Below are positions 2,013 to 59,888 of a DNA stretch of 64,000 nt, one piece after another. This DNA comes from Oscillospiraceae bacterium (GTDB lineage Bacteria > Bacillota > Clostridia > Oscillospirales > UBA929). The stretch is from contig WRIZ01000002.1 in NCBI GenBank assembly GCA_009782475.1, positions 1 through 64,000 on the forward strand, in the 5' to 3' direction. A program made the position numbers and the translations under genes. Below the pieces are notes generated by a model, which saw only the letters and a list, made by a program, of their open reading frames with translations, was not told where the DNA came from and ran no database searches. The number at the start of each line of letters is the position of its first letter. Position 1 is the first letter of the stretch.

Positions 2013-3296
2013 ATGTCATATGACAACGATAGGTTTTTTGAGAACCTTATGGGAACAGAGGCGGGTCAGCGCCTGTATGGAGCGACAAAAAGCCTTGTCA
2101 ACACAATGTTTGAAGGGTTGTCAGACTATGAAATAGCAAAGAGTATGCTTCCGAAAAAAGGAAACTATCGGGACGGCGCTTACAATTCCATGCAGGATAT
2201 CAAAGACGAGATCGACAACTGTCAAAGGGATATTCAAATGGTGAAAGCCGAAGCGGACACAGCCCGAAAACCGGGAGTCCGTTATGCTGAAATTCTTAGC
2301 AGGTTGTATAGCCGGGAGTCGTCGCTAAAAGCGGAACTGCAGGATCGGATAGAAGAAAGACGTGACCCTGCTGCCTACGCTGAGCAAAAGCGCATGGAGC
2401 GGTACAACAGTTTATATGAGCAGTCGAAAACTGCAACATCTGAATGGGAACTGAAAAGGCTTGTTGAGCAGTTGCGTGAACTTGATGGTTTCGAAGACTC
2501 TGAAGATTTGGCTGACGAAATAGAGCAGCGATATGAAAATCTCAAGAGCACACGCATTAGCAGCTCATACAGCAGCGAAATACAAAAGCTATCGGAGCTA
2601 AAAAAACAGTTTGATAGCAGAAATAAATTGACTCCGCACCAACTTCGAGAATTGGCGAATTCTTATAAGGAAAGAGCCCGCCAATTCAATGACCTTGAGG
2701 GATATAAATCATCTGTTGAAAAAGCAAAGGAATGCGAAAGGAATAGTGATACCGCGAGTAAATTAGCGGATACCAAGGAGCGAAGGGCAATTATTGCCCG
2801 AAAAACGGTTATAGGGGTAGGTATAGGCGTTCAGGTATGTGTGACAGCGTATTTCCTTTATACTCTCTATGGAACAGCAGCTATTCGCCAATTTACCGAG
2901 GCGGAAAAAGGGTCATGGGGTATCATGCACTCTTTGTTTATGCCGTTATGTTTGTTCGGCCTGACGCTGGCTTGCAATAGCATGATTTTTTTCAGGAAGA
3001 ACTTTATTTCCGGCGCGTTAACGCATCTGCCGTTATTCGGTGTCGCTATAGTCTACGCGGTTACACTGGCCAATTGGACAGATAGCGCATCATCGGACTT
3101 GCTTACCTTTGGCCTGCTATGCCTTGTTGCAATAATCCCGGGCTTTATATTGCTGTTACTAATGCAGAAGACATATTCTATTAAGTCAATCCCTATTTCT
3201 CTGATTCTTGTTGCTGCTGTAGTAATAGGTGGAAGATATGGGTTTCCTGCATTGGAAACTTTCATGCAATCATTACCGGAAATAGGGATAGGGTGA
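2013..3296 (+). CDS. hypothetical membrane protein with an N-terminal coiled-coil and C-terminal transmembrane helices
   Basis: ATG at 2013 is preceded by AGAGGAGA. The N-terminal ~260 aa are charged and coiled-coil-like. The C-terminal ~160 aa contain at least 4 hydrophobic helices. The gene ends in an ATGA overlap with the next gene. Confidence 0.5.
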   Translation: MSYDNDRFFENLMGTEAGQRLYGATKSLVNTMFEGLSDYEIAKSMLPKKGNYRDGAYNSMQDIKDEIDNCQRDIQMVKAEADTARKPGVRYAEILSRLYSRESSLKAELQDRIEERRDPAAYAEQKRMERYNSLYEQSKTATSEWELKRLVEQLRELDGFEDSEDLADEIEQRYENLKSTRISSSYSSEIQKLSELKKQFDSRNKLTPHQLRELANSYKERARQFNDLEGYKSSVEKAKECERNSDTASKLADTKERRAIIARKTVIGVGIGVQVCVTAYFLYTLYGTAAIRQFTEAEKGSWGIMHSLFMPLCLFGLTLACNSMIFFRKNFISGALTHLPLFGVAIVYAVTLANWTDSASSDLLTFGLLCLVAIIPGFILLLLMQKTYSIKSIPISLILVAAVVIGGRYGFPALETFMQSLPEIGIG

Positions 3297-4067: not shown

Positions 4068-4661
4068 ATGGCTACGCTTTTGCTTTATCAAGGGCATGGG
4101 AGCTTTCGTCTCAGGTCAGGTGACGGAAAGGTCATCTTTGTGGATCCATACATCGGTGACGGTTACGATTTACCGGCTGATATAGTCTTGGTGACCCATC
4201 AGCATGGCGACCATAATCAAGTGCAGTTGGTCACCCAAAACCCTGGATGCCGTGTGATTACCAACAATGAAGCGTTGACAGGCGGTAAGCACCAATCGTT
4301 TTCGATTGACGGCATAGAAATACAATCCGTGGCTGCCGGCAACAAGAACCATGACCCTAACCAATGTGTTGGCTATATCATTACGCTTGATGGAGTGAAA
4401 GTATACGCGGCAGGGGATACCTCCAAGACCGGAAGCATGGAGTCTTTCGCGGACATGAGCATAGACTATGCGCTGCTGCCCACAGACGGTAAATACAACA
4501 TGGGCCTCGATGAAGCGGCAGAGTGTGCCCGCATTATTAAGGCAAAGCACAATGTCCCGATTCATATGAAACCGGGAGAACTGTTTGACCGTGACTACGC
4601 AGAAATGTTCTGCGCGCCGAATAGGCTGATTGTTGAGCCGGGGGAGGAGATTACGCTGTAG
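4068..4661 (+). CDS. MBL-fold metallo-hydrolase
   Basis: HQHGDH metal-binding motif (THQHGDHNQ), 197 aa. RBS GAGGGAGG lies upstream. Confidence 0.7.
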   Translation: MATLLLYQGHGSFRLRSGDGKVIFVDPYIGDGYDLPADIVLVTHQHGDHNQVQLVTQNPGCRVITNNEALTGGKHQSFSIDGIEIQSVAAGNKNHDPNQCVGYIITLDGVKVYAAGDTSKTGSMESFADMSIDYALLPTDGKYNMGLDEAAECARIIKAKHNVPIHMKPGELFDRDYAEMFCAPNRLIVEPGEEITL

Positions 4662-4665
4662 GCGG

Positions 4666-4703
4666 CGCACTTCAAGTCTTCTTGAAGTGCGTTGCATTTT
4701 CTT
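4666..4703 (+). terminator. Rho-independent terminator after the MBL hydrolase gene
   Basis: 11-bp stem cgcacttcaag / cttgaagtgcg with loop tctt, followed by ttgcattttctt. Confidence 0.6.
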
Positions 4704-4737
4704 AAAGAAAAAAGCAAAAATATTTTCAAAAAAACTA

Positions 4738-4768
4738 TTGACTTTGACGCTACGGAATAGTTTACACT
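4738..4768 (+). promoter_or_regulatory. MerR-type promoter: -35 TTGACT, 19-bp spacer, -10 TACACT
   Basis: A 19-bp spacer is the hallmark of MerR-regulated promoters. It lies directly upstream of the MerR-HTH gene, so autoregulation is plausible. The outer dyad CTATT..AATAG spans the -35 element and the spacer. Confidence 0.4.
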
Positions 4769-4790
4769 TGGTTTTAGGAGGTGAGGTCAG

Positions 4791-5798
4791 ATGGAATACA
4801 CCGTCAACAAACTCTCGAAATTGTCAGGGGTCAGCGCTCGTACGCTGCGTTATTACGATGAGATCGGCCTCTTGAAACCGGCTAAGGTCGCATCGTCAGG
4901 GTATCGCAGCTACGGGCAGTACGAAGTGGATATGTTGCAGCAGATTTTGTTCTACCGTGAACTCAATTTCTCGCTGGACGATATCCAGAAAATCATGACC
5001 GACCCCAATTTTGACCGGGAGCAGGCTTTCACAAACCATCTCACCGAGCTTCAAAACAAAAGTGTGCGGCTGGACGAATTGATTGTCAACGTCAAGAAGT
5101 CCATGGCCGCCATGAAAGGTGAGGGTACTATGTCGGTCAAAGAAAAATTCAAGGGGTTCAGCAAGACGAACAGAAACGTGGATGCCGTGTTGAAGGAAAT
5201 CTCCATCACCGGCAATGTAGCCGGAGGGTTGCTCCTCAATGAAATCGAGCAGGTGTTTGTCAACATCGGGGAAGAGAATGTAGAGTTCATTTATACCTTC
5301 CCGATGCCTGAAGACGCCTCGGTCACCAGTTTCTCTGCCATGATTGGAGATGAGCGATTCACAGGCGTGGTGCAGGAAAAGGAAGAAGCGCTGGAAAAAT
5401 ACCAGAAAGCCATTGTCAAGGGTGACAGCGCCTACATGCTTGAGAGTCATCGGGACAATATATTTCAAGCCTCTCTGGGTAACGTGGCAAAGGGCGAAAC
5501 GGTAACCGTTCACATCTCTTACATACAGGATGTCACGGTGTCCAATAATGAGATCAGATTGCTAATCCCTACCCTTGTCAGCCCGCGGTATATCCCCGGT
5601 AAGCCCATAGGCCCGAAAACAGGTATGGGCTCCGTCAATCCGACCGGGCAGGTTCCAGATGCGGATTTCATTACTCCTGTGATTGGCGAAACAGGTTATA
5701 AGGTTGATTTTAATCTCTCTTTTGAATTGGATAACAATATTAAAGAGATTTCCTCGCCGTCTCATGACATTACATCGACATTTGACGAAGGCAAATGA
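4791..5798 (+). CDS. MerR-family HTH regulator fused to a VIT domain. This is the N-terminal segment of a MerR-VIT-vWA protein and ends at an in-frame TGA.
   Basis: The N-terminus LSGVSARTLRYYDEIGLLKP is a MerR HTH, followed by a coiled-coil. Residues ~150-275 fit the VIT pattern (FPMPEDASVTSF...RLLIPTLVSPRY). Translation continues in the same frame after TGA 5796-5798. Confidence 0.7.
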   Translation: MEYTVNKLSKLSGVSARTLRYYDEIGLLKPAKVASSGYRSYGQYEVDMLQQILFYRELNFSLDDIQKIMTDPNFDREQAFTNHLTELQNKSVRLDELIVNVKKSMAAMKGEGTMSVKEKFKGFSKTNRNVDAVLKEISITGNVAGGLLLNEIEQVFVNIGEENVEFIYTFPMPEDASVTSFSAMIGDERFTGVVQEKEEALEKYQKAIVKGDSAYMLESHRDNIFQASLGNVAKGETVTVHISYIQDVTVSNNEIRLLIPTLVSPRYIPGKPIGPKTGMGSVNPTGQVPDADFITPVIGETGYKVDFNLSFELDNNIKEISSPSHDITSTFDEGK

Positions 5799-5840
5799 AC
5801 TGTTACTGTAAATCAGGCGGATCTGAACTCCGACTTTGTC

Positions 5841-7781
5841 TTGAACATTTCGCTGCTCGGCGTTACGGCCGAGAAGTTCATCGTTTCTCAAAAGACAGAT
5901 AGCGGGTATTTTTCCTATATCTCGTTTGTGCCAAGACTGAAAGCCGCGCCTTTTGCTAACAAGGAATATATTTACATGCTCGATATATCCTATTCAATGA
6001 GCGGCGAAAACTTGGAATCGGCGAAGAAGGCTCTGAAAATCTGTCTGAGAAACCTGGAAGCCGGCGACATTTTTAATATGATTGCCTTTGAAAGCAGCTT
6101 CGAGTGTTTTTCCGAGCGGGGTGTTGAGCTTACAGAGGACAGCTTCAAAAAAGCTAACCTGTGGATAGATCAGCAAACCAGCCGTGGCGGTACGGAAATC
6201 TTCCCGGCCCTGCGGTATGCTGTGGAAAGCATGAAGAATGAACACGACATAGAAAAGATTATTATGCTCCTGACGGACGGTCAGGTGGGCAATGAGGACG
6301 AGATTATCAAATATGTCAAGGGCAATTTCGATGGCCGCGTCTTCTGCGTGGGAATCGACGTCAATGTCAACGACAGCTTCTTAAACAAAGTATCTACTGT
6401 AGGCAACGGCTATACAGAGTTCTATTACCCGGACAGTAATGAAGACCTTGCCGGAAAAATCGTAAGGCAATTCGCCAGATCAAATGCCGCGTATCTCAAG
6501 GACATTAAGTTCAAAGCGGATTGCAAAATCGAGGTGGCCGGCAAGCCGCCTAAATACCTCTACAGTGATGAATGCTGCAACATCATCTTGAAATCGGACG
6601 ACTGTATTGACTTTTTACGCGTTATCGGGTCTTCCGACGAGGGCGAGATGACGTTGGAGTTCCCGGTGACAGACACCAACGGCAATCCAGAGCTGTTCAG
6701 TAAAATGTGGGCCAAGAAGAGGATAACTGATTATGAACGCGATGCGTTCGATATCAACCCGAGACACGAGAAGCTGGCAAAAGAAAAGATTATCGAAATA
6801 AGCGTCATGTATGGCGTGATATGTCGCTATACCAGCTTTATCGCGCTGAATGAGCGTGAGAGCAAACAGGTGAATCTGCCCAAAGCGGTAGCCGTTCCGG
6901 TCAATGCGCCGAAGAGGAAAGCAGCAAAATCTTCTGGCGGAGGAATCTTGGGCAGAGGGCTTTTCAGCGAAATGAAGATGCTCAGTAGGCCATATTCAGA
7001 CGATGATACTGAAGACTTTGTCTGCTATAGTAGGTCTCCGCGCGAACAAGAGAGACGGTCGCAAGAGAGACTTGAAATGAAACGGCTAATGAGGCCAATA
7101 GATGATGCCGATGATTTCTCTGAATTTATGCCCCGAAGCGCAAGCATTCCGCCACCGCCTCCTAGTGCCGCATATGCTCCAAGTGCATCTGTGCAAAGCA
7201 GCGATGCCGATGAGAGCGATCCTTTCGAGAGCATATTCCGCATCTTTAATAGATCTTCGGCAACGAGGCCGCAGCCAGAAGGCAAAAGCAAAATCCAGCC
7301 TCTTGTCCTAAGATTTTTCAAGGAAATCTCTGATAGAGACACCCCAGTATCAGAATCGGAGTTCAAACTCGACATACGGGCAAAGATCATCGAGCTGTCT
7401 AAGCATTGCGACGCCATTGACTTTGCTGTGTGCTTCAATGAGATGGATCAGATTCTATCGGCTGTCGAGCAGTTTGTCGGGAAGGGCGATCAAGCATTTG
7501 ACGACAGTTTCCAAAAGTTGCTTCAACTGTTGGATGAGAACTGCCGCTTAAACGATGCGTCCTTAAAGTCCGCCGATATTGCCAGTATGCAGAATTTCGA
7601 CGGCTCGTTCTGCCAGTGCAGTCAGCTGAAAAAGAAGTATACCTTGGTCGCGGCGAAGCGGTTTATCAGCGACAGCGATTCATTCCTGTATAGCAGGCAA
7701 ATCAAAAAGCTGGTTGAATTTTTCCGCCGGACAGACGCCACTGTTTTGGAGGATTCTTGCTTTGCCGAATACTTGAAGTAA
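5841..7781 (+). CDS. von Willebrand factor A (vWA) domain protein, continuing the upstream VIT ORF in frame. It carries an internal copy of the FtsZ C-terminal peptide.
   Basis: vWA MIDAS region YMLDISYSMSGENL...LTDGQ. Then a Pro-rich disordered linker (PPPPPSAAYAPS) ending in DESDPFESIFRIFNRSS, then an alpha-helical C-terminal domain. It is in the same frame as 4791..5798, and the intervening codons read TVTVNQADLNSDFVLNISL. Confidence 0.7.
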   Translation: MNISLLGVTAEKFIVSQKTDSGYFSYISFVPRLKAAPFANKEYIYMLDISYSMSGENLESAKKALKICLRNLEAGDIFNMIAFESSFECFSERGVELTEDSFKKANLWIDQQTSRGGTEIFPALRYAVESMKNEHDIEKIIMLLTDGQVGNEDEIIKYVKGNFDGRVFCVGIDVNVNDSFLNKVSTVGNGYTEFYYPDSNEDLAGKIVRQFARSNAAYLKDIKFKADCKIEVAGKPPKYLYSDECCNIILKSDDCIDFLRVIGSSDEGEMTLEFPVTDTNGNPELFSKMWAKKRITDYERDAFDINPRHEKLAKEKIIEISVMYGVICRYTSFIALNERESKQVNLPKAVAVPVNAPKRKAAKSSGGGILGRGLFSEMKMLSRPYSDDDTEDFVCYSRSPREQERRSQERLEMKRLMRPIDDADDFSEFMPRSASIPPPPPSAAYAPSASVQSSDADESDPFESIFRIFNRSSATRPQPEGKSKIQPLVLRFFKEISDRDTPVSESEFKLDIRAKIIELSKHCDAIDFAVCFNEMDQILSAVEQFVGKGDQAFDDSFQKLLQLLDENCRLNDASLKSADIASMQNFDGSFCQCSQLKKKYTLVAAKRFISDSDSFLYSRQIKKLVEFFRRTDATVLEDSCFAEYLK

Positions 7782-7841
7782 AAAGCTGCAATAGGCAATG
7801 GGCGGGTTGACTAATAACCCGCCCATTGCTATATCTCTTCA

Positions 7842-8717
7842 TCATGCCGTTTGTTGCTTCTGCCAAGCGCAAAGCAGATCGGTTATGACTTGATTCATCT
7901 GAGATGCCGTGTAATCCGCAGGGAAGAATCTACGAAATCCTCCGACGTCTTTTTCTGTGTTCGAATCTGATTTAGTTTTCGCAAGCACCTTTTCAATCGC
8001 GGCAACGGTGAGTTCCCCGGCTTGGCTCAGTTTCTTGAGTTGTATTGCCTGCGAGAGCATCGGCTTGACCTGATATTTCATCATTGCCTCTACCACAGAT
8101 GCTTGTTCCGAACGCGAGAGATGGGACAATTCCACGGCAGGATTGAACGCAAGCCGATTTGCGTCCACCTTGTCAAGCAGATCAGGAACCAATTCAGTCA
8201 GCCGGATTAGCCGAAAAATCTGGTTTCTGCTTTCGCCGGTCTGCTCGACCAACACATCCACGGAGTGCATATCGCTTTTGACTCCGTTGTGGTTCAGTGC
8301 TTCCATCTTAACACGGTAGGCCCACGCCTTTTCGCTGGGCAGGATTTTCTCCCGCTGTTCCAAATTCGAATCTACCATCGCTATGGCGGCGCTGTCATCG
8401 TCCATTTCGCGTATGATAACAGGCATGGTGACTATCCCGGCGAGTTCGGAAGCCCGTTTGCGTCGGTTCCCGGCAATAAGCTCATAACCACCCTCGGCTC
8501 TTGGCCGGACAAGACCGGGCTCACGGACGCCATACTGCTTCACGCTGTTTACAAGCCGTTTCATAGCAGCATCATCAAGAACCTGAAATGGGTGATACTC
8601 AGGAGGGTAGAGTTCAGTGAGCGGGAGGTCAACGATACGCTCGACATCCGCTTCAACGCCAAAAATCTCGTTGTGACCGGCAAGGGCAAGGTTGCCGAAT
8701 GTTCCTGTCTTACGCAA
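7842..8717 (-). CDS. parB: ParB/Spo0J-family partition protein
   Basis: ParB N-terminal domain: GVREPGLVRP...YELIAGNRRKRASELAG, a GERR-box variant. 291 aa. It overlaps parA by 8 bp. Confidence 0.8.
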   Translation of the reverse strand: MRKTGTFGNLALAGHNEIFGVEADVERIVDLPLTELYPPEYHPFQVLDDAAMKRLVNSVKQYGVREPGLVRPRAEGGYELIAGNRRKRASELAGIVTMPVIIREMDDDSAAIAMVDSNLEQREKILPSEKAWAYRVKMEALNHNGVKSDMHSVDVLVEQTGESRNQIFRLIRLTELVPDLLDKVDANRLAFNPAVELSHLSRSEQASVVEAMMKYQVKPMLSQAIQLKKLSQAGELTVAAIEKVLAKTKSDSNTEKDVGGFRRFFPADYTASQMNQVITDLLCAWQKQQTA

Positions 8718-9498
8718 TCTTCAGCACCTCCTCGGTGAGCGTGGCATACGCCGCCGCGACTTTTCCGGTGGGATCATAGGCGAAGATGCTTTTTCCTTCC
8801 GCGCTGGTTTCCGCGGCACGGACAGAGCGGGGAATACGCTCCCTAAAAATGTGGATATCGCTGCCGTATGCGCTTTCGATGAGAGAGATGATCTCGCGGG
8901 TATAGTTCATCCGTTTGTCAACCATTGTAAGTAAAATGCCGCCAATTGCAAGATTGGGGTTGAAATGCCGCTGCACCTGTGATATAGTCTTAAGCAGCAG
9001 TTCAAGCCCTTTGGCATCAAGGTATCCCGCTATAACTGGAATGAGTACGCAGTCTGACGCGGTAAGCGCGTTGATGGTCAGAAGACCGAGCGATGGCGAT
9101 GTGTCAACGATAACGAAGTCATACATCGGTTTCAACGTATCGATGTACTGCCGGAGTATGGTTTCACGCCCCACCATCACTGAGGCTAAAGCGAGTTCCG
9201 TGCCTGACAGACTGTTGTTAGCGGGAAGAAAGTCAATGCCCTCGCTGTGATGGAGGATGCCGCTTGTCGGGTCGATTGGGGTTTCGCGTAAGATGGCGTC
9301 CATTGCGGTTGTGAGCGTGACGGGGAGTTTATCCGGCTCTCTGACGCCAAGACTGATAGTGAGGGAGTGTTGCGGGTCGGCATCGAGAAGGAGAACACTT
9401 GCTCCGCTTTTTGCCAGTCCGACACCAAGGCTCACGGCGGTCATGGTCTTTCCCACACCACCTTTGCGATTGGAAACGCAGATTGTTTTGCCCATATG
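8710..9498 (-). CDS. parA: ParA/Soj-family partition ATPase
   Basis: Deviant Walker A KGGVGKT. The likely start is MGKTICVSN at 9495/9498, preceded by an AAAGGAAAG RBS. The ORF is open upstream as far as 9630. Confidence 0.8.
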   Translation of the reverse strand, partial: HMGKTICVSNRKGGVGKTMTAVSLGVGLAKSGASVLLLDADPQHSLTISLGVREPDKLPVTLTTAMDAILRETPIDPTSGILHHSEGIDFLPANNSLSGTELALASVMVGRETILRQYIDTLKPMYDFVIVDTSPSLGLLTINALTASDCVLIPVIAGYLDAKGLELLLKTISQVQRHFNPNLAIGGILLTMVDKRMNYTREIISLIESAYGSDIHIFRERIPRSVRAAETSAEGKSIFAYDPTGKVAAAYATLTEEVLKIA

Positions 9499-9687
9499 GT
9501 TCTTTCCTTTCCGGTTGGATTTTGGGACATTGGCATTTGTCGTATACTTAACATCAGCTATAGTATTGGACAAAAGGGTCCCAATCTTGAAGTGGAAAAA
9601 GGGTAGAAATGAATAACGACAAACCCGCAACCCATTGATAACACAGGTTTTTAGGATTTGTCGTAATTATACCATAAGGGCAGTTGT

Positions 9688-9719
9688 CCCATAAACGAAC
9701 CGTGAGGTTCGTTTATGGG
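9688..9719. repeat. perfect 14-bp inverted repeat (hairpin) in the parA upstream / divergent intergenic region
   Basis: cccataaacgaacc gtga ggttcgtttatggg. There is no U-tract on either strand. It may be an operator or recognition site. Confidence 0.5.
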
Positions 9720-9878
9720 CATCTTTATGCTCTGATCGCCGTGAACGTGGGGACGGTCGGGTGAGTATGACCCCTATTATGAGGATAAGCTGGGGTATGA
9801 GTACAAACCTAACCCAAATCCCCGGCATACTGGCGTGTTGCAAAAAGATAAAGTCTACCTTGAGAGGAAATTGTGACA

Positions 9879-43863: not shown

Positions 43864-43919
43864 TTCTATTTGCGAGGGACTGTCCGTATAATCAAGTGAG
43901 AAAAAGGGGGGACAGCCGA

Positions 43920-46193
43920 ATGGCGGAAGAGAGGAAGCCGCGGCCTGATAAAGAACGGTACAACCGGATGATTCTGGTGCGGGTGTTGATCCTCACCGGG
44001 ATTTTCGGTTTTGCGATGTTCGTCCCTTTGTCCATGAAACTCTATAACGTCGCCATCACACAGCATGACGAGCTGGAGCAAAGAGCCATCGATCAAGCCA
44101 CCAGCTCCTATCCCGTCACCGCCGGGCGCGGAACCATCTACGACCGCAATCACAACATTTTGGCCGTATCGGCCAGTGTGGAAACGGTCTGCGTCTCGCC
44201 GCGCGACATCGCCCGGGACAAAGACGCCGACGCCAAAAAGAAAATCATTGCCGACGGGCTTTCGGCCTTGCTGGATGTAGACCGGGAGATGATCGTTGAG
44301 CGGATGGAGCGCACCAACCGCGCCAACGAAACCATCAAGATGCAGATCGAGCGCGAACTGGCCGACGAGGTGCGGCAGTTTATTGAGGATAACAAACTGA
44401 CCCGGATGGTCTTCCTCGAACCGGCCAGCAAACGGTATTACCCCAACGGCTCCTTTGCGTCCAACATATTGGGGTTTGTGGACAGGGACGGAAAAGGGCT
44501 GATGGGGCTGGAAGCGGTGTATAACAAACACTTGGCCGGCGCGCCCGGATATACGGTGCGGGCGAAGACCGGGCAGGGGATGCCGCTGCCCAACCAATAT
44601 GAAATGTATTATGACGTTTTGGAAGGCTACAGCCTCGTTCTCACCATCGACGAAACCATTCAGCATTTTGCCGAGAAGCATCTTGAAACCGCCGTGATCG
44701 AAAACGAAGTCGCTCAGCGCGGCTGCGCCATCGTGATGGATGTCAAAACAGGCGGCATCCTCGCCATGGCGACCAAAGGCGATTTCGACCTCAACGAACC
44801 GCGTGAGATCGCCGACGAGGCGACCCGCCGCTGGCTGGATTCGCTCGGTGAAGAACTATACGCCGATGAATTGAGCATCGCGCAGCAGGCGCAGTGGCGC
44901 AACAAAGCCGTGTCCGATACCTATGAGCCGGGTTCGGTTTTCAAAATCTTCACCGCCGCTATGGCCATTGAGGAAAAGGCGGTGGATATCCATAACGACC
45001 GTTTTTCCTGCGGGGGAACCATTTCCATACCCGGTTACAGCGGCAGATGCCACAAAGCGGCCGGGCATGGGAGCCAAACCTTTTTGGAAACACTGACGCA
45101 TTCGTGCAACCCGGCTTTTGTCAACATTGGGATGCGGGTGGGGCCGGAAAAATTTTATGATTATATGCGCGCCTTCGGCTTTATGGATACAACAGGGATC
45201 GACCTTCAAGGCGAAGCCAAGGGCATCATCGCCCCTTATGAGAATTACTCACGGTATGTCTCCTCGCAGGCCGTTTACTCGTTCGGTCAGACGTTTACCG
45301 TAACGCCCCTCCAAATGCTCACGGCGGTCAGCGCCGTCGCCAACGGCGGAAAACTGATGAAGCCGTATATGCTTTCTCAGGTCATCGACGCCGACGGGCG
45401 GGTGGCCGAGAAAACCGACGCCACCCTTGTCCGGCAGGTCATCAGCGAGGATACGAGCAGATTGATGTGCGAGTATTTGGAAGAATGCGTCAATCAGGGA
45501 ACCGGTTCCAACGCCTACGTCAAAGGCTACCATGTGGCGGGCAAGACCGGGACGTCGCAGAAACGGGCGCAGGATATAACCGGGGAAAAGGGACTCTATG
45601 TCGTCTCCTTTGCCGGATTCGCCCCGTCGCACGATCCGCAGATCGCGGTTTTGGTCATGCTGGACGAACCGGGGTTAGACCGCCACCTGCGTATGGGAGG
45701 GTATATGGCGGCTCCCGTCGCGGGGCGTATCTTTGCCGACGCGCTGCCCTATATGAATGTCATCCCGCAGTATAAGCCGGAAGAGGCCATGTCGGCCGAT
45801 GTGACCGTTCCCTTTGTCAAACGCGCTGCCGTTTCCGAAGCCGAAGCCGCCGCGAAAAAACTCGGGCTGACGGTGCGTGTGATCGGCGACGGGGAGAGCA
45901 TTACCGACCAGTTACCGGCGGCGGGTGTGCGTGTGCCGCTCAAAACAGAGATGATCCTCTATACCGAAGGGACAAAACCCGAGGAGAGCTGTTTGGTTCC
46001 CGATGTGCGCGGCAAAACGCCCGGACAGGCCAATGAGCTGCTGACCAATGCCGGGGTGTTTATGCGGCCGATCGGAGCCAAGCCGTCCCCGGACGCCGTC
46101 CTGACGGCGGCGTGGCAGGAGTATGCCGGGCAGGAAGTGCCGCGCGGGACGGTCATATCGGTGGAATTCCGAAGTTCCAACGTAGACGACTAA
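43920..46193 (+). CDS. class B penicillin-binding protein (FtsI/SpoVD/PBP2B-like) with C-terminal PASTA domains
   Basis: Transpeptidase SVFK (SxxK), SCN (SxN), KTGT. PASTA repeats at the C-terminus. AAAGGGGGGA RBS before ATG 43920. Confidence 0.9.
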   Translation: MAEERKPRPDKERYNRMILVRVLILTGIFGFAMFVPLSMKLYNVAITQHDELEQRAIDQATSSYPVTAGRGTIYDRNHNILAVSASVETVCVSPRDIARDKDADAKKKIIADGLSALLDVDREMIVERMERTNRANETIKMQIERELADEVRQFIEDNKLTRMVFLEPASKRYYPNGSFASNILGFVDRDGKGLMGLEAVYNKHLAGAPGYTVRAKTGQGMPLPNQYEMYYDVLEGYSLVLTIDETIQHFAEKHLETAVIENEVAQRGCAIVMDVKTGGILAMATKGDFDLNEPREIADEATRRWLDSLGEELYADELSIAQQAQWRNKAVSDTYEPGSVFKIFTAAMAIEEKAVDIHNDRFSCGGTISIPGYSGRCHKAAGHGSQTFLETLTHSCNPAFVNIGMRVGPEKFYDYMRAFGFMDTTGIDLQGEAKGIIAPYENYSRYVSSQAVYSFGQTFTVTPLQMLTAVSAVANGGKLMKPYMLSQVIDADGRVAEKTDATLVRQVISEDTSRLMCEYLEECVNQGTGSNAYVKGYHVAGKTGTSQKRAQDITGEKGLYVVSFAGFAPSHDPQIAVLVMLDEPGLDRHLRMGGYMAAPVAGRIFADALPYMNVIPQYKPEEAMSADVTVPFVKRAAVSEAEAAAKKLGLTVRVIGDGESITDQLPAAGVRVPLKTEMILYTEGTKPEESCLVPDVRGKTPGQANELLTNAGVFMRPIGAKPSPDAVLTAAWQEYAGQEVPRGTVISVEFRSSNVDD

Positions 46194-46208
46194 CAGAGGG
46201 GGTGCAAG

Positions 46209-47603
46209 ATGCGGCTGTTTGCCCTGTTGCAGGTTTTGGATACATTGCAGACAAACGCGCCGTCTTTGGACTGCGAAGTGGACGGCGTGCACAACGATAC
46301 GCGGGGCATGAAGAAAGGCGACCTCTTCGTCGCCGTCCCCGGAACCGAACTGGATGGTCATTGTTATATCCGTCAGGCGATGGACATCGGCGCGTCGATG
46401 ATCGTGACCGAACGCCCGCTTGATTCCTCTGTCCCGCACGTCGTCGTGCCCGACGCGCGCGCCGCTTTGGCCATGCTGGAAGCGAAAATTGCAGGCTACC
46501 CGGCTGAAAAGATGACGATGACCGGCGTGACCGGGACAAAAGGGAAAACGACGGTCACTCATATCATCAAGGGGTTGATCGAGGGCGTCACAGGCCAAAA
46601 GACAGGGCTGGTCGGCACCAATCATATCCTGATCGGGGAGAAGGAGCTGCCGTCGGAACGCACAACCCCCGACGCGGTCAAGCTGAACAGTGTTTTCGCG
46701 CAAATGGCGGAAGAAGGATGCGCCCACTGCGTGATGGAAGTATCGTCCCACGCGCTGGCGCAGTCCCGGGTATTGGGGATACATTACGAAGCAGGGGTCT
46801 TTACCAACCTCCATCACGAGCATATGGATTACCATACCGATATGGAGGATTACTTTTCCGCCAAAAGCCGATTGTTTTTGCAAAGCAGGAAAGCTATCAT
46901 CAACAGTGACGACCCTTACGGAAAACGGCTGGCCGCACAAATCCCCGATGCGATCCCCTTCTCGCTCTCTATGGCGGAGAACAGGGAGCTAAAGCCCAAC
47001 GGCGTTGCGTTCACCCTGTCGGGAGAGCGTTTCGCGTGGGGTACGCCCGGGTTGTTCACCGTTTACAATGTTCTTGCCGCCGTCTTGACCGGCGCGGCAT
47101 TGGGGCTCCCCATCGCGGATATGGCAAGGGTTTTGCCCGGTATCCCGCCTGTGAAAGGGCGGATGGAGTTGGTGACGGCGGACAACGGTATCTACATTTA
47201 CATCGATTACGCCCATACGCCCGACGCCATTGCCGCCGTGCTGCAAACGATGAAACCATTTTGCAAAGGGCGGCTGATCGCCCTCTTCGGATGCGGCGGC
47301 GACCGTGACAAGACCAAACGCCCTTTGATGGGGGCTGCGGCTCAGCGAACCGCCGACCTATGTTATGTCACTTCCGACAACCCCCGTTCCGAAAACCCGG
47401 AAACGATTATTTCAAACATTTTAGAGGGAATGGAAAACCGGGACAGGTTTGTTGAACCCGATCGCAGGAAAGCGATTAAGGCGGCGATGAAAGAGGCCAA
47501 GCCGGGCGATATACTCATGCTGCTGGGCAAAGGTCACGAAGAGTATCAGGAAATTTGCGGCGTCAAGCATCCGTTTGACGAACGGGAGGTGGTACGGGAA
47601 TGA
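46209..47603 (+). CDS. murE: UDP-N-acetylmuramoyl-L-alanyl-D-glutamate--2,6-diaminopimelate ligase
   Basis: GVTGTKGKTT P-loop and Mur ligase domains. Confidence 0.9.
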   Translation: MRLFALLQVLDTLQTNAPSLDCEVDGVHNDTRGMKKGDLFVAVPGTELDGHCYIRQAMDIGASMIVTERPLDSSVPHVVVPDARAALAMLEAKIAGYPAEKMTMTGVTGTKGKTTVTHIIKGLIEGVTGQKTGLVGTNHILIGEKELPSERTTPDAVKLNSVFAQMAEEGCAHCVMEVSSHALAQSRVLGIHYEAGVFTNLHHEHMDYHTDMEDYFSAKSRLFLQSRKAIINSDDPYGKRLAAQIPDAIPFSLSMAENRELKPNGVAFTLSGERFAWGTPGLFTVYNVLAAVLTGAALGLPIADMARVLPGIPPVKGRMELVTADNGIYIYIDYAHTPDAIAAVLQTMKPFCKGRLIALFGCGGDRDKTKRPLMGAAAQRTADLCYVTSDNPRSENPETIISNILEGMENRDRFVEPDRRKAIKAAMKEAKPGDILMLLGKGHEEYQEICGVKHPFDEREVVRE

Positions 47604-48580
47604 ACGACATGCTGCTCTCTGCCGGTATAGCGTTGGTTTGCGCGCTGCTGTTCGGAAAGCTCCTCCTTCCGGTGCTGCGAAGGCTCAAAATGGGGCAGAA
47701 AATCCTCGAAATCGGCCCCAAATGGCATAAATCCAAAGAGGGGACGCCCACCATGGGCGGGTTCTTCTTCATGCTGGCCATCACGGTTGCCGTTGTGATC
47801 ACCGGCTGGCATGACGCGGTGAATGGGCAATACACCCACCTTTTCATTCTGCTGTTCGCGTGGGTTTGCGGCGGGATCGGGTTTGTAGACGACCTCGCCA
47901 AAGTCCGCAAGAAGAAAAATCAAGGGTTGACGGCTCCGCAGAAACTCTTGCTTCAGCTGAGCGCGTCGGCGGCGTTTTTGGCGGCGTTGCGGGTCTTCAT
48001 GCCCGATTCAAAACTGGCCGGAGGGGAAATCGCCATCCCCTTTACATCCATCGTTCTCAGCGTTTCATGGCCTGTTTTCCTAACGCTGGGCATCCTTTTC
48101 GTCGCGGGGTTTATCAACGCCGTCAACATCACCGACGGGGTGGACGGGCTTTGCAGCGGCGTGACCCTGCCGGTCACCGTTTTCTTCGGAGCCATCGCCT
48201 TTTCGGCGGGGAATACCGGCAATATGGTGTTTGCCGGGGCGTTGGCGGGAGGGCTGCTCGGGTTTTTATGGTTTAATTTTCATCCGGCCAAAGTTTTCAT
48301 GGGCGACACAGGATCGCTCTTTATCGGCGGCGCGCTGTGCGGTTTGGCGTTCGCCGCCGATCAGCCGTTGATTTTGCTCATCGCCGGGCTGGTTTATTTG
48401 TTTGAGGTTCTTTCGGTCGTACTGCAAGTGACCTATTTCAAGCTGACAGGCGGCAAGCGCATCTTTAAGATGTCGCCGGTTCATCATCATTTTGAAATGA
48501 GCGGCTGGGGCGAAAAGAAAGTATTCTTTGTATTCACGGCTTTTAGCGCGGTTTTCTGCGCGTTGGCCTGGTTTGGGTGA
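47600..48580 (+). CDS. mraY: phospho-N-acetylmuramoyl-pentapeptide transferase
   Basis: Polytopic membrane protein with NAVNITDGVDGL and the HHHFE motif. Confidence 0.9.
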   Translation: MNDMLLSAGIALVCALLFGKLLLPVLRRLKMGQKILEIGPKWHKSKEGTPTMGGFFFMLAITVAVVITGWHDAVNGQYTHLFILLFAWVCGGIGFVDDLAKVRKKKNQGLTAPQKLLLQLSASAAFLAALRVFMPDSKLAGGEIAIPFTSIVLSVSWPVFLTLGILFVAGFINAVNITDGVDGLCSGVTLPVTVFFGAIAFSAGNTGNMVFAGALAGGLLGFLWFNFHPAKVFMGDTGSLFIGGALCGLAFAADQPLILLIAGLVYLFEVLSVVLQVTYFKLTGGKRIFKMSPVHHHFEMSGWGEKKVFFVFTAFSAVFCALAWFG

Positions 48581-49761
48581 GCAAGATGAATGAACAAACG
48601 GAAAAAGTGAATATCGAAGCGGCCAAACGCGAAATGAACCGGACGGTGAAAAGCCCGATGGATTTGCCGTTTGCCCTTTTGGTCATCCTGCTCGGCGGCA
48701 TCGGGCTGGTGATGATGTTTTCGGCAGGTTACTCGTGGGGAGCCATCAAAACAGGGAATCCGGCGTTCTTTGTGACAAGGCAAGGCATTTTCCTGTTGAT
48801 GGGCATTGCCGTTATGCTGATCATATCGCGTTTTGATTATCATTATTTCCGCGCTTTTTCCATGCCCGCTATGGTTATTGCCGTTATCCTTTTGGTGGTG
48901 GTTCTCTTTGTCGGTTCGGCCGACAAAGGAGCCATTCGCTGGATCAACTTTGGCATCTTCAACATCCAGCCCTCGGAAATCGCCAAAATCGCCGTGATCA
49001 TGCTTTTTGCCGCCATGATCTCGGCACGGCCTGAACGATTGTCGCAAAAAAAACTGTTGCCCGCACTGGTTGGCATTGGACCGTATATCTGTATCTTGGT
49101 ATTGATCGCCGGGCTGATGGCAATGCAGCCGCATTTCTCCGGCATCATCCTCATCCTCTCGGTCGGTGCCGTTATGCTCTTCATGGGCGGGCTGGCTTAT
49201 CGCTGGATCGCCATTGTGGGCGCGGCGGGCGTGGGTGCCATGACGGTGATGATCACCGCCACAGATTATGCCTCCAATCGGATCGCCTTATGGCGCGACC
49301 CGTGGATCGATCCGCAGGAAGGGGGATACCAAATCATCCAATCGCTCTACGCCGTGGCGTCGGGCGGGTGGTTCGGGCTGGGGCTGGGGCAGAGCCGTCA
49401 AAAATACTCCTATCTGCCCGAACCGCATAACGATTTTGTTTACGCCATCGTCGTGGAAGAATTGGGCGTCGTGGGAGCCATGATCGTGCTCTTCCTGTTC
49501 ATGCTGCTGATCATCCGGGGGTTTTGGATCGCCCTCCATGCCCGCGACCGTTTCGGGACGCTGCTGGTCTCCGGCGTCACCACCCTGCTGGCCATTCAGG
49601 TTTTCCTCAACGTCGCCGTCGTCACCAATTTGATCCCGGTCACGGGGATTTCCATGCCGTTCTTCTCTTACGGGGGGTCGTCCCTCCTCATCCTGATGGC
49701 GGAGATGGGCATCATCCTCTCGGTGAGCAGGCGGCTGCCCGCCTACCGGCAAGGAGGCTGA
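48577..49761 (+). CDS. ftsW: SEDS-family peptidoglycan glycosyltransferase FtsW/SpoVE
   Basis: 10-TM SEDS pattern (SEIAKIAVIM, PEPHNDFVYA). Confidence 0.85.
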   Translation: MSKMNEQTEKVNIEAAKREMNRTVKSPMDLPFALLVILLGGIGLVMMFSAGYSWGAIKTGNPAFFVTRQGIFLLMGIAVMLIISRFDYHYFRAFSMPAMVIAVILLVVVLFVGSADKGAIRWINFGIFNIQPSEIAKIAVIMLFAAMISARPERLSQKKLLPALVGIGPYICILVLIAGLMAMQPHFSGIILILSVGAVMLFMGGLAYRWIAIVGAAGVGAMTVMITATDYASNRIALWRDPWIDPQEGGYQIIQSLYAVASGGWFGLGLGQSRQKYSYLPEPHNDFVYAIVVEELGVVGAMIVLFLFMLLIIRGFWIALHARDRFGTLLVSGVTTLLAIQVFLNVAVVTNLIPVTGISMPFFSYGGSSLLILMAEMGIILSVSRRLPAYRQGG

Positions 49762-49763
49762 CC

Positions 49764-50870
49764 ATGCGCTTTATCCTGACTTGCGGCGGTTCGGGCGGGC
49801 ATATCAACCCCGCTTTGGCTGTGGCGCGGCTTCTGCGTGAAGGCGGGCATGAGGTTCACTTTATCGGCGCGCCGTCCGGGCTGGAGCGCGATTTGGTTCC
49901 GCGCGAAGGTTTTCCAATTGAATTTGTTGAAATCCGTTCGCTTTCCCGTTCGCTTTCGCCGAAAGCCATCGTGAAAAATGTCAAAACGGCTGTGCAAACA
50001 TTGGGCGCGGCGGGAAAAGCAAAGAAAATCATCCAACGATACAAACCCAACGCCGTTTTAGGTACGGGGGGTTACGCCAGTTATCCCGCGCTGCGCGCCG
50101 CCGCCAAGTGTAAAATCCCCGTCTTGGTGCATGAATCCAACGCTTTTCCCGGCTTGACCACCAAAATGGCGGCCAAGCGCGCCGACGCTATCTTGGTGGG
50201 GATGGAACACTGCCGCGAAGCGTATAAACACAAAGACCGCGTCCATGTCACCGGAACCCCGGTGCGCCCGGAGTTTTTCAGCACGAATCGCCTGCTTGCT
50301 AAAGAAGAATTGAAACTGGATAACCGTCCGTTGATCGTGAGCATATTTGGCTCGCAAGGGGCGAGGGATATGAACCGCATCATCTTGGAACTGATGCGGC
50401 TGGAAGGCGGGGAATGGCAGCACATCCACGCGGCGGGGCCCAAGCGGGTTGACAGCGTTTTGCAAAAAGCCGAAGAAATGGGATTGGCTTTCAACGGAAC
50501 GACCGGGCTCCGCCTGTTGGATTACATCCACAACATGGCGCAAGCGGCGGCGGCGGCCGACCTATTGATCTGCCGTGCCGGGGCGTCTACGCTGGCCGAG
50601 TTGGCGGCGGCCGGGAAACCCGCCATCTTGATCCCCAGCCCCAATGTTGCCGCAGACCATCAAACGGCCAACGCAAAAATGATGGAGAAAGCCGGAGGGG
50701 TGGTTGTTGTGCCGGAAGCGGGGCTGTCGGCTGAAAAACTGCATGAATTGGTTAAAACAATGCTCGCGGATAAAGATAAACTCGGCCAAATGAGCCGGGA
50801 CATCCAAAAGACGTCGGTTCCCGATTCCGCACAGCGTATCGTGAAAATTTTGATGAAGACGGCAAAGTAA
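49764..50870 (+). CDS. murG: undecaprenyldiphospho-muramoylpentapeptide beta-N-acetylglucosaminyltransferase
   Basis: MRFILTCGGSGGHINPALAVA with AAGGAGG RBS. The longer track ORF from 49524 overlaps ftsW and was rejected. Confidence 0.9.
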   Translation: MRFILTCGGSGGHINPALAVARLLREGGHEVHFIGAPSGLERDLVPREGFPIEFVEIRSLSRSLSPKAIVKNVKTAVQTLGAAGKAKKIIQRYKPNAVLGTGGYASYPALRAAAKCKIPVLVHESNAFPGLTTKMAAKRADAILVGMEHCREAYKHKDRVHVTGTPVRPEFFSTNRLLAKEELKLDNRPLIVSIFGSQGARDMNRIILELMRLEGGEWQHIHAAGPKRVDSVLQKAEEMGLAFNGTTGLRLLDYIHNMAQAAAAADLLICRAGASTLAELAAAGKPAILIPSPNVAADHQTANAKMMEKAGGVVVVPEAGLSAEKLHELVKTMLADKDKLGQMSRDIQKTSVPDSAQRIVKILMKTAK

Positions 50871-50940
50871 CAATTCCCCCGAAACTGCCATAGAATGAGC
50901 CATAAAGCCCATTTTCATGGAGGATTCGGAGGAAAACGGC

Positions 50941-52191: not shown

Positions 52192-52211
52192 AACCGAAAG
52201 AGGTACAAAAG

Positions 52212-52979
52212 ATGCCGGGAGAAAGAAAGCGCAGACGGCGGGGAAGGTATAGCTTTTTGCTGACCTTCTTTGTTGCCGCCGCGCTTATTTTTGCATTTGT
52301 GCTGACAAGCGGCTTTTTCTTCAAAATCAAGCACATCGAATTTGAGGGCGTATCGGTCACAAGCCAGGCAAAAATCAAAGAGCTTTTGGGGTTTTCCGAA
52401 GGCGATCATATCTTCCTCATCAATAAATCAGGTTCGGCCAATTCGATTTTGGCCAACATGCCTTATGTCAAAACAGTCCGCATCAAGCGGAGCCTGCCGG
52501 GCACGGTGCTGGTGATCATCACCGAAGCCGAACCGGCGGCCATGATCGAATACAGGGGCGAGGTTTGGCTGTTTGACGCGCAGGGGAAACTCTTGGAGTC
52601 CGTTGCGTCTTATAACACGCCCGATCTGCCGGTTGTAACGGGGTTTGAGCTGTTCAGCCCCATGGAAGGCACAACCATTTATCCGGCGTTTGAAGATACC
52701 GCGAAGAAAGAACCGCTGCTGGAATTGCTTCAAACAATGCGGGAGGAAGGGATATGGGAAGGCGTCGGGGAAATCGATCTGACGCAAATCTCCAATATTT
52801 GCTTTACCTATAACGAAATCTATACGGTGGAACTGGGGCTGCCGAACAAGTTTGACCGGAAGATTCAAATCATGAATCAAGCCTTGCAGGATGAGAAAGT
52901 CTCCGGCAGAGGGGCGGGAACGCTTTATCTTGCGGACGCGGGGGAAAAGCCTGTGAGATTCGTCCCGGGGGGTGATTGA
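52212..52979 (+). CDS. ftsQ: cell division protein FtsQ/DivIB (POTRA)
   Basis: N-terminal TM, then a POTRA-like KIKHIEFEGVSVTS. Confidence 0.75.
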   Translation: MPGERKRRRRGRYSFLLTFFVAAALIFAFVLTSGFFFKIKHIEFEGVSVTSQAKIKELLGFSEGDHIFLINKSGSANSILANMPYVKTVRIKRSLPGTVLVIITEAEPAAMIEYRGEVWLFDAQGKLLESVASYNTPDLPVVTGFELFSPMEGTTIYPAFEDTAKKEPLLELLQTMREEGIWEGVGEIDLTQISNICFTYNEIYTVELGLPNKFDRKIQIMNQALQDEKVSGRGAGTLYLADAGEKPVRFVPGGD

Positions 52980-58413: not shown

Positions 58414-58721
58414 TCCTTGGTTTTATTTTTTAGAGAGTACCGTTCGATGCTAACGATGATTAGCCGCTGCTTCACCACCTTTGCCTTCGCGCACCTTTAC
58501 TGAACCCACAGCCTCCAACATGGGTTCGCAAGACTGATTATATACGCAATGCTGAAGATTGTCAATCTTTAGTTTATCGTCCCACGGTTGGAGAAACTGT
58601 TAAATAATTCTTGACAACGGCAGTAAAGCCATATACAATACAAAAGAACATATAGACATGCAAACGATTATCCGTAAAGTGTTATACTTTACACCAACAA
58701 ATGAGACCGGGGGATGAGGGC

Positions 58722-59888
58722 ATGGCCTTTGAACTGGACAGTGGAAACGAAAGCGTTGTATCCATAAAGGTTATCGGCATCGGCGGCGGCGGGAACAACG
58801 TCGTCAACCGCATGATGGAAGGCGGCGTTACCAGTGCCGATATGGTCGCTGTGAACACAGACCGCCAAGCCCTGATCAAAACAAGGGCGACACATAAGCT
58901 CCAAATCGGCGAGAAGCAGACGGGCGGCAAAGGCGCGGGTTCCAATCCCGAAATCGGCCGCAAGTCGATGGAAGAGAGCCGTCAGGAGATGGCCAAACTC
59001 CTTACCGGAACCGATATGGTGTTCATATCCGCCGGCATGGGCGGCGGCACCGGCACGGGTGCTGCGCCTATCGTGGCCGACATTGCCCGCGAGCAGCAGA
59101 TCCTCACCATCGGCATCGTCACCAAGCCTTTCCATTTTGAAGGGCCTCACCGCATGAAACAGGCGGAAGCGGGGATCGAAGAGCTGCGCAGCCGGGTCGA
59201 TTCATTGATCGTTATACCCAATGAACGGCTAAAGCTGGTTTCAACCGAGAAAATATCCTTTGCCACAGGATTTAGAATTGCCGACGATGTGCTCAAACAA
59301 GCCGTGCAGTCTATATCAGACCTGATCAACACCACCCAGCTGATCAACCTTGACTTTGCCGACGTCAGTGCCATCATGCGCGACGCGGGTTATGCCCATA
59401 TCGGCGTGGGGCACGCCTCGGGCAAAGCCAAAGCCGAGGAAGCCAGCCGTCAGGCCATACAAAGCCCGCTGCTGGAGACAACCATCAACGGAGCCAAAGG
59501 CGTCATCATCAACATCACCGGAGACGCCGACCTTGCGCTGGAAGATGTTGAAATGGCGGCCAACATGGTCAAAGGTGCCGTACACCACGACGCCAACATC
59601 ATCTTCGGAGCGGCCATAGACGAAAATATGGATGATGAGATTCGTGTCATCGTCATCGCCACCGGTTTTGATGAAAGTGCCATGATCATCGACGACAGCC
59701 TGTTCACAGGGTCGGCGGCCAAACCGCCCGCGCCCAAACCCACGCCGTCTGCGGCCGAACCCGCGGCAGCGGCGGCCATCGATTCACCGGAACAAACCCC
59801 CTTCCCGACAGTGGCACCGGCCGCCAAAGAAGAACCGGCCGAGGAAGACCCGTTTGAATCGATTTTCAGAATCTTCAATAAAAAATAA
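58722..59888 (+). CDS. ftsZ: cell division GTPase FtsZ
   Basis: GIGGGGNN and tubulin signature GGGTGTG. A Pro/Ala-rich C-terminal linker ends in the conserved C-terminal peptide DPFESIFRIFNKK. Confidence 0.95.
   Translation: MAFELDSGNESVVSIKVIGIGGGGNNVVNRMMEGGVTSADMVAVNTDRQALIKTRATHKLQIGEKQTGGKGAGSNPEIGRKSMEESRQEMAKLLTGTDMVFISAGMGGGTGTGAAPIVADIAREQQILTIGIVTKPFHFEGPHRMKQAEAGIEELRSRVDSLIVIPNERLKLVSTEKISFATGFRIADDVLKQAVQSISDLINTTQLINLDFADVSAIMRDAGYAHIGVGHASGKAKAEEASRQAIQSPLLETTINGAKGVIINITGDADLALEDVEMAANMVKGAVHHDANIIFGAAIDENMDDEIRVIVIATGFDESAMIIDDSLFTGSAAKPPAPKPTPSAAEPAAAAAIDSPEQTPFPTVAPAAKEEPAEEDPFESIFRIFNKK

Follow-up and report, generated by a model that had tools for sequence, protein, structure and literature searches.

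The interrupted gene and its domains

The 64,000-nucleotide (nt) stretch of DNA analysed here, which we call the window, comprises positions 1 to 64,000 of contig WRIZ01000002.1 from a metagenome-assembled genome (MAG) of an Oscillospiraceae bacterium. Its positions 4791-7781 hold a gene for a MerR-VIT-vWA protein, in which a MerR-type DNA-binding head is fused to a cytoplasmic VIT-vWA protein, and the frame of this gene is broken by one TGA codon at 5796-5798. We consider it probable, though well short of certain, that the TGA is a genuine and recent inactivating nonsense mutation (GGA>TGA) and not a recoding signal.

Translation of 4791-7781 gives 997 codons with this TGA as the sole internal stop. 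The two open reading frames (ORFs) on either side of it, ORF1 (4791..5798, 335 aa) and ORF2 (5841..7781, 646 aa), share one reading frame, and translation across the stop runs ...STFDEGK*TVTVNQADLNSDFVLNISL.... TIGR03788, a single model of VIT-vWA proteins, is matched by ORF1 at positions 7-205 and by ORF2 at 221-593, i.e. by consecutive parts. Among Pfam families, ORF1 matches MerR_1 (residues 3-70, E = 1.8e-17) and VIT (PF08487, residues 134-244, E = 3.5e-30), while ORF2 matches vWA (PF13768 and PF00092). An earlier interpretation made from the letters alone (the sequence-only reading) had placed the two ORFs in the same frame with a single TGA between them, and both the translation and the continuity of the TIGR03788 match bear this out. 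A shared frame is in itself nothing special: it also occurs in eight further pairs of neighbouring genes in the window, and those examined with Pfam, among them PyrB/PyrI and penicillin-binding protein (PBP)/Mur ligase, consist of complete genes that are unrelated to each other. The split of ORF1 and ORF2 is regarded as non-random because homology runs on past the stop, not because the frame is common. A continuous MerR-VIT-vWA frame is accordingly a correct description of this locus but not a family architecture, as the chimera is a one-off. The NCBI annotation lists two proteins, MCL1806228.1 and MCL1806229.1.

The features of the locus are listed below by window position; P0002 is the closest intact homolog in the protein search.

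4662..4695, + strand: terminator-like hairpin (15-bp stem, T-rich tail) that closes the upstream metallo-beta-lactamase (MBL)-fold gene and forms the 5' boundary of the unit
4738..4768, + strand: MerR-type promoter, predicted from sequence, with -35 TTGACT (4738-4743), a 19-bp spacer and -10 TACACT (4763-4768)
4776..4781, + strand: strong Shine-Dalgarno sequence AGGAGG of ORF1 (duplex free energy -14.5 kcal/mol against a median of -5.8 for genes of the window)
4791..5159, + strand: MerR head, residues 1-123 (winged helix-turn-helix, dimerisation helix and the first ~10 TipAS residues)
5160..5795, + strand: VIT domain and first part of the VIT-vWA connector, residues 124-335
5796..5798, + strand: in-frame TGA in place of an invariant Gly (equivalent to G210 of P0002)
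5799..7781, + strand: rest of the frame (ORF2, annotated from TTG 5841 as MCL1806229.1)
5841..5843, + strand: TTG taken by gene callers as the start of ORF2, with no Shine-Dalgarno sequence (free energy +0.4 kcal/mol)
5982..5996, + strand: intact metal ion-dependent adhesion site (MIDAS) motif DISYS (DxSxS) of the vWA domain, with Tyr where at least 95% of the family has Gly
7218..7250, + strand: DPFESIFRIFN, identical in every residue to the C-terminal peptide of the host FtsZ and situated in the disordered ORF2 linker
7794..7830, + strand: strong terminator-like hairpin (16-bp stem) that closes the unit 3' of the ORF2 stop
59847..59888, + strand: 3' end of the host ftsZ (ORF 58701..59888), tail ...EEDPFESIFRIFNKK*, the model for the ORF2 motif

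The 660 codons of 5799..7781 are open, and their end coincides with the end of the homologs. They encode four strands of the connector, then the vWA domain followed by a hybrid-like beta region and, beyond a disordered linker, a helical domain at the C-terminus.

The stop in a second assembly

A sequencing or assembly artefact that hides a true sense codon (GGA) would be compatible with the origin of the sequence in a MAG, and a single base would suffice for it. However, an ENA metagenome contig (ERZ27257320 k141_5150199, locus L001) encodes the identical 335-aa product followed by the identical 646-aa ORF, with the identical stop region ...GGCAAATGAACT.... Over window positions 4189-9852 the two sequences are 99.84% identical, with 8 substitutions and 1 indel in 5.7 kb, and two non-identical consensus sequences that both carry the TGA make an assembly error very unlikely. 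Further, ~15 billion catalogued proteins yielded no sense allele of the exact locus, and the junction had no match either in exact-pattern scans of two contig collections, genome_contigs and JGI metagenome_contigs, with any codon (NNN) allowed at the stop. Sequencing error had been among the possibilities raised from the letters alone; with an independent assembly carrying the same TGA and both products, we regard it as very improbable.

The sole indel between the two sequences, at 4651, affects a single base. It precedes the stop codon of the upstream MBL-fold gene (4068-4661) by three codons and alters the extreme C-terminus of the MBL-fold protein in one of the two strains.

The ancestral codon

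The 10 closest relatives (L095, L096, L098-L104 and L108) come from termite-gut and related metagenomes. All ten have Gly at the codon aligned to the TGA (GGG, GGA, GGC or GGT, with GGA in four); L108, for example, reads GGC AAG GGA ACG GTC ACG where the window reads GGC AAA TGA ACT GTT ACT. In the wider family the residue is Gly or Ala and never Cys. Since the Gly (GGN) is invariant among the closest relatives, the mutation was a G>T transversion from GGA to TGA rather than a TGG>TGA change. The sequence-only reading had suggested a recent nonsense mutation from TGG and a search of orthologs for TGG or another sense codon. The nonsense mutation is the best-supported of its options and the relatives do have a sense codon, but that codon is GGN for Gly, with GGA as the ancestral form, rather than TGG.

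All full-length homologs in the alignment (A1) run uninterrupted from VIT to vWA. A survey of splits covered the 80 genomic loci that ranked best and 38 metagenomic loci whose ranking used only the VIT part. The VIT-vWA frame was unbroken in 80/80 and 35/38 of them, respectively, and nonsense accounted for 1 case in ~118 loci. None of the relatives compared has a stop at the window's codon. The idea that two separate proteins at this junction could be the ancestral state finds no footing in this continuity.

Other departures around the connector were seen in individual relatives. L097 and P0169 join the VIT domain and connector straight to the post-vWA region, the vWA domain being deleted, and L104 has a ~350-nt insertion at the connector/vWA boundary.

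Decoding and restart signals

TGA terminates 21 of the 56 long ORFs in the window, and further stops nearly always follow soon beyond. The genetic code is therefore standard, and the earlier statement that TGA is a genuine stop elsewhere in the window is correct. Reading of the TGA as selenocysteine or as an amino acid under an alternative code is effectively refuted by this stop-codon usage, and its probability is next to nil. The codon is indeed TGA, and code 25 would read it as Gly, the ancestral residue; however, the source is an Oscillospiraceae MAG, outside the known code-25 lineages (Gracilibacteria/Absconditabacteria), and the window lacks the marks of a reassigned code, as 21/56 ORFs end in TGA and the other same-frame neighbours checked are distinct complete genes. 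Selenoproteins have a selenocysteine insertion sequence (SECIS) element just downstream of the UGA and Cys in their homologs. Here an 81-nt stretch that takes in the stop and what follows it is no more prone to fold than its shuffled versions (z = 0.55) and contains no SECIS-like hairpin, and the homologs offer no Cys. An Rfam scan returned noise only, with no other match at E<=10, and no tRNA genes were found in the window.

Leaky or regulated readthrough would yield mostly MerR-VIT protein and a minority of full-length, DNA-tethered protein bearing the FtsZ-tail motif, with Trp or another residue inserted at the UGA and a ratio of the two products that is meaningful in itself. Among bacterial stops, UGA is the leakiest and the one at which near-cognate readthrough occurs most readily; the frame downstream of the TGA is wholly intact, and an in-frame stop permits a full-length product where a frameshift would not. 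Programmed readthrough, however, goes with a stop that is conserved in orthologs and with a stimulatory context, whereas this stop is unconserved, no downstream structure accompanies it, and no relative has the same arrangement. In addition, the invariant Gly stands at a tight turn-to-strand junction, where insertion of Trp would likely be harmful, and the chimeric architecture is a singleton. On this evidence, we find readthrough as an explanation of the stop improbable.

An internal restart had also been proposed, at an ATG at 5841; the codon there is TTG, and it lacks a Shine-Dalgarno sequence. The only in-frame start with an average one is ATG 5976, which lies inside strand beta-1 of the vWA domain, beside the MIDAS motif. 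On the + strand between ORF1 and ORF2, no promoter-like or terminator-like sites were found, and the hairpins at 4662-4695 and 7794-7830 bracket the two ORFs as one unit. With an unconserved stop and no structure, Shine-Dalgarno sequence or internal promoter, neither regulated readthrough nor restart gains positive support.

Position of the stop in the fold and state of the downstream frame

The stop was placed on an AlphaFold model of P0002 (predicted local distance difference test score (pLDDT) 84, predicted template modelling score (pTM) 0.83), a protein that runs collinear with the window in the region of the stop. Strand 202-206 is followed by a GG turn and, directly after it, by strand 209-217, in which G210 is the second residue; the local pLDDT is ~90. 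Strands 223-229, 236-239 and 246-253 then precede vWA beta-1. According to the model, the stop cuts inside an ordered beta-hairpin or sheet and not in a flexible linker or at a domain boundary, and it falls two strands short of the end of the VIT-side sheet. A product from TTG 5841 would begin mid-strand (in the 'DFVLNISL' strand).

This placement bears on the explanation that the locus is functionally split, with a MerR-VIT regulator and a separate vWA/FtsZ-tail protein made by termination-reinitiation at or near TTG 5841, the two perhaps reassembling non-covalently. TTG 5841 lies only 43 nt beyond the stop, ORF2 is fully intact, and NCBI lists two genes and no pseudogene; moreover, most relatives have MerR and VIT-vWA on separate polypeptides in any case. 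Yet a cut within a beta-hairpin, off any domain boundary, is an awkward place for such a division, no in-frame start before vWA beta-1 has a Shine-Dalgarno sequence, no internal promoter was detected, and splits are as rare as the survey above indicates. We judge a functional split unlikely, taking into account also the synonymous differences between strains and the connector stops of other lineages, to which we return below.

ORF2 itself shows weak signs of decay. D398, S400, S402, T468 and D496 (the MIDAS DxSxS, T and D) are invariant columns and are kept in the window, as are all other family-invariant residues in ORF2. The window departs from 5 of the 91 columns that are conserved in at least 95% of the family, all of them downstream of the stop; two of these departures are common to relatives, and the window-specific ones are F395Y, G401Y (in the MIDAS loop) and L462Q. 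Since the 660 codons are open and the invariant residues and the FtsZ motif are kept, the stop is taken to be recent.

Several points weigh against inactivation. There is no second lesion in ORF2, where 660 codons stay open in DNA of 47.7% GC, and its FtsZ motif has kept all 11 residues. In integrin beta subunits the MIDAS works with the variant DxSYS, so that the few deviations of ORF2 from conserved columns are no proof of decay. All three differences between the window and L001 that fall inside the ORFs (5153, 5156 and 6221) are synonymous, which is the pattern expected from purifying selection on both halves, if one may read a pattern in n = 3. Given the leakiness of UGA, some full-length product is to be expected. 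Lastly, at least three other family lineages have one in-frame stop each in the same ~35-residue connector, with a long open vWA frame beyond it: L011 (Melghirimyces profundicolus) has TAG at 5763-5765 after ...DRDIVLI, L013 (a Syntrophomonadaceae-like contig) has TAG at 3075-3077 after ...GRCR, and L096 has a stop (...SDEE*FIYSTF...) where its near-relative P0122 has Tyr. A split there could thus be tolerated or even useful. However, these stops fall at P0002-equivalent positions 227, 231 and ~244, none at the window's codon, and none is kept in the nearest relative (the TAG of L013, for instance, faces GAT in L020). The pairs L011/L012 and L013/L014 are each 100% identical and hence not independent confirmations.

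The connector was also considered as a hot-spot for stops. This was not established: L011 and L013, two of the three extra cases, had been picked for being short, and the unbiased surveys give 1 in ~118.

Against these points, nonsense mutation accounts for a stop that is one step from the orthologous sense codon, lineage-specific and without compensating translation signals, and it remains our preferred reading.

A chimeric MerR head with its promoter

Residues 1-123 are 70-75% identical to 252-aa MerR-TipAS regulators and collinear with them through '...MSVKEKFKGF', the end of which represents the first few TipAS residues. Beyond '...EKFKGF' the window continues 'SKTNRNVDAVLKEISITG', which matches the extreme N-terminus of VIT-vWA proteins. 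At the junction, 'GF|SKTNRNVDAVLKE' compares with the starts MSKNTAVLKE (P0002), MTNDATLKE (L098) and MSNGAVLKE (L095), and the alignment puts the point of fusion near codon 2 of the VIT-vWA gene. ORF1 has no match to the TipAS domain (PF07739). It therefore has the N-terminal winged helix-turn-helix and dimerisation helix of the TipAL/Mta subgroup and lacks its C-terminal TipAS effector domain.

The promoter, with its over-long spacer, and a predicted operator dyad also agree with the TipAL/Mta subgroup. An imperfect dyad at ~4741-4761, inside the spacer, is the putative operator, and the promoter/operator core TTGACTTTGACG...AATAGTTTAYAC is kept upstream of two MerR-TipAS genes, in L009 and L010 (alignment A3). 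The surroundings of these two genes include an integrase, a MobC/NikA-like protein and a helicase in L009, and a TerL nuclease fragment and a methyltransferase in L010. Such mobile-element contexts hint that the gene that donated the head may travel on mobile DNA.

Both assemblies contain the MerR/VIT junction, which excludes a chimera made during assembly. A word-indexed search that covered 5.8 billion sequences brought up no other protein with MerR and VIT, and HMMER, run in full over 1.84 billion representatives, found none either. Other VIT-vWA proteins do carry N-terminal extensions (CarboxypepD_reg, SHOCT-like, FHA, and signal or transmembrane segments), but never MerR. An ancestral, unfused MerR-TipAS/VIT-vWA arrangement was not found among the loci compared, and the gene upstream of the closest relative, P0122 (L008), encodes a TPR protein and not a MerR protein.

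MerR genes as partners of the VIT-vWA family

Although the fusion is unique, a MerR gene is a frequent neighbour of VIT-vWA genes. In 71 of 80 genomic loci, which range from Clostridia to Myxococcota, the VIT-vWA gene is directly preceded by a MerR gene of ~150 aa with the same orientation. Among the metagenomic loci, 17 of 38 have an upstream MerR gene. The partner (L015-L094) is found ~300-600 nt upstream of the VIT-vWA start, and L013 has one as well (1781-2251). In L123, no more than four in-frame codons lie between the MerR stop and the ATG of the VIT-vWA gene.

The window's own subclade (L002, L004, L005, L008 and L095-L108) is without the upstream partner, and the head of the window protein is of a different MerR type, being 35% identical to the ~150-aa partner in the helix-turn-helix only. 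The fusion thus has the look of a Rosetta stone that connects VIT-vWA proteins with DNA binding of the MerR type, if one made through a non-cognate, TipA/Mta-type head. Literature searches returned no description of a MerR/VIT-vWA pairing. PADLOC gave only a generic helix-turn-helix match (mad1) and no defence system.

A copy of the FtsZ tail in the linker

The C-terminal peptide of FtsZ is the docking site for FtsA, SepF, EzrA, ZipA, MinC and SlmA. The suggestion of the sequence-only reading that the downstream part of the frame mimics the FtsZ tail proved sound: DPFESIFRIFN matches the tail of the host's own FtsZ in 11/11 residues. At the DNA level the two agree in only 22/33 nt, and 8 of the 11 codons are different synonymous ones (including AGC/TCG and CGC/AGA). 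The motif is hence not a recent DNA copy, and the identity of the peptide is maintained by selection.

Oscillospiraceae FtsZ tails share a non-canonical dialect (DPF[ED]xIF[KRN]IFN...). The ortholog L108, which is 61% identical, has DPFDTIFKIFS at the same place in a linker that is otherwise unconserved. Other Bacillota members carry textbook tails (DLDIPTFLKR, DDLDIPRFLRKK, DMDIPSFLRKN...), sometimes two in tandem, and the canonical motif D-[LM]-D-I-P-x-F-L-R-K sits at the same relative linker position in other Bacillota VIT-vWA proteins. It occurs in 30 of 217 family proteins, with 30 of the 31 matches at relative position 0.74-0.82, and its rate (31 in 178,511 family residues) exceeds that in control ORFs (5 in 494,691 residues) by ~17-fold. 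The motif-bearing loci are L017, L018, L067, L069, L070, L075, L076, L078 and L080 (at ~residues 590-690), and the motif-bearing proteins include P0012, P0056, P0061, P0068, P0112 and P0328. All nine of these genomic loci also have the upstream MerR gene. The dialect of the motif tracks the host lineage, the Oscillospiraceae-type motif of L108 being a case in point.

The mimic is not universal in the subclade, as P0004 shows no resemblance above background (score 21) to the FtsZ tail that its own contig encodes. In Myxococcota members, no canonical FtsZ-tail motif was found. Literature searches for protein decoys of the FtsZ tail found nothing, and we know of no described one.

The ftsZ gene lies ~51 kb from the motif-bearing gene. 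The same window also holds a division/cell-wall cluster at 43896-54604 (with a PBP transpeptidase and a Mur ligase) in addition to ftsZ at 58701-59888. Two overlapping genes at 7842-9630, on the - strand, converge on the MerR-VIT-vWA unit: one encodes a ParB_N-domain protein of 291 aa, the other a ParA/MinD-type ATPase, which has 306 aa as called and 261 aa according to ENA.

Comparison with known systems

The closest described proteins are VIT-vWA proteins, namely PARP4 of vaults, the inter-alpha-trypsin inhibitor heavy chains ITIH1/4 and bacterial TIGR03788-like proteins. They share with the window protein a VIT domain, an ordered beta connector and a vWA domain with the MIDAS pattern DxSxS...T...D, and P0002 aligns with PARP4 residues 618-1194 (E = 3e-26) as well as with ITIH4 and ITIH1. 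Unlike PARP4 and the ITIH proteins, the window protein is bacterial and cytoplasmic, has no signal peptide, and carries a DNA-binding head, an FtsZ-tail motif in a disordered linker, a C-terminal helical domain and a stop inside the connector. It thus has the VIT and the MIDAS-bearing vWA domain of the family but not its single uninterrupted polypeptide.

In its head (residues 1-123), its TTGACT-19 bp-TACACT promoter and its operator core, the gene resembles the TipAL/Mta MerR regulators. It differs from them in that the TipAS sensor is gone, bar its first ~10 residues, and a VIT-vWA protein stands in its place. The loss of the sensor is reminiscent of the truncated, constitutively active MtaN fragment. 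SlmA and Noc, which also bind DNA, act on FtsZ, whereas the window protein would imitate it. Its motif is identical to the host FtsZ C-terminal peptide, but unlike in FtsZ it is internal and lies in a non-tubulin protein, and binding of the FtsZ partners is a prediction from the peptide.

The locus also has the marks of a young nonsense pseudogene, i.e. a single stop one step from sense, restriction to one lineage and a downstream frame that is open without signals of its own. It departs from the typical case in that the stop is found in two strains that have diverged slightly and whose ORFs differ at synonymous sites only, and in that three other family lineages stop in the same connector.

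What the stop disconnects

In our preferred reading, in which the TGA is an inactivating nonsense mutation, a single transcription unit encodes a chimera of a MerR promoter, operator, winged helix-turn-helix and dimerisation helix with a cytoplasmic VIT-vWA protein. Ribosomes would release a 335-aa MerR-VIT stub at the TGA, and this stub probably still dimerises and binds its own operator. The 660 codons downstream, which comprise the vWA domain, the FtsZ-tail motif and the C-terminal domain, have neither a start led by a Shine-Dalgarno sequence nor a promoter of their own, and their product would be made only in traces, through leaky UGA readthrough or reinitiation without a Shine-Dalgarno sequence. 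The net effect would be a knockout, or a strong knockdown, of the part that bears the FtsZ tail.

More generally, the VIT-vWA family may present an FtsZ-tail look-alike to the partners of FtsZ under MerR control. MerR heads without a sensor domain tend to be constitutive activators, as in MtaN, and from this one might speculate that the fusion over-expressed an FtsZ-tail decoy and that the nonsense mutation was selected as relief from a division defect. A bolder idea, which we regard as a long shot, is that the stop divides a new type of division regulator into working parts. VIT-vWA proteins with a MerR partner would then be stress-induced FtsZ-tail decoys, the head would have been joined to the decoy in this strain, and the UGA would set the balance between abundant MerR-VIT protein and a rare readthrough product that tethers the FtsZ-tail copy, and hence FtsA- or SepF-type partners, to DNA.

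In practical terms, the locus should be annotated as a disrupted gene and not as the two independent proteins MCL1806228.1 and MCL1806229.1. The stop is ordinary in itself; its significance lies in what it disconnects, the half that bears the FtsZ tail. The codon-diverged identity of the tail, the recurrence of the motif in lineage dialects and the upstream MerR gene together suggest a module, so far undescribed, in which an imitation of the FtsZ tail is under MerR control; it could be an inhibitor of division or a factor recruited to the divisome. Of such a module, the window would offer a natural knockout or hypomorph and, in the same gene, a natural Rosetta-stone fusion.

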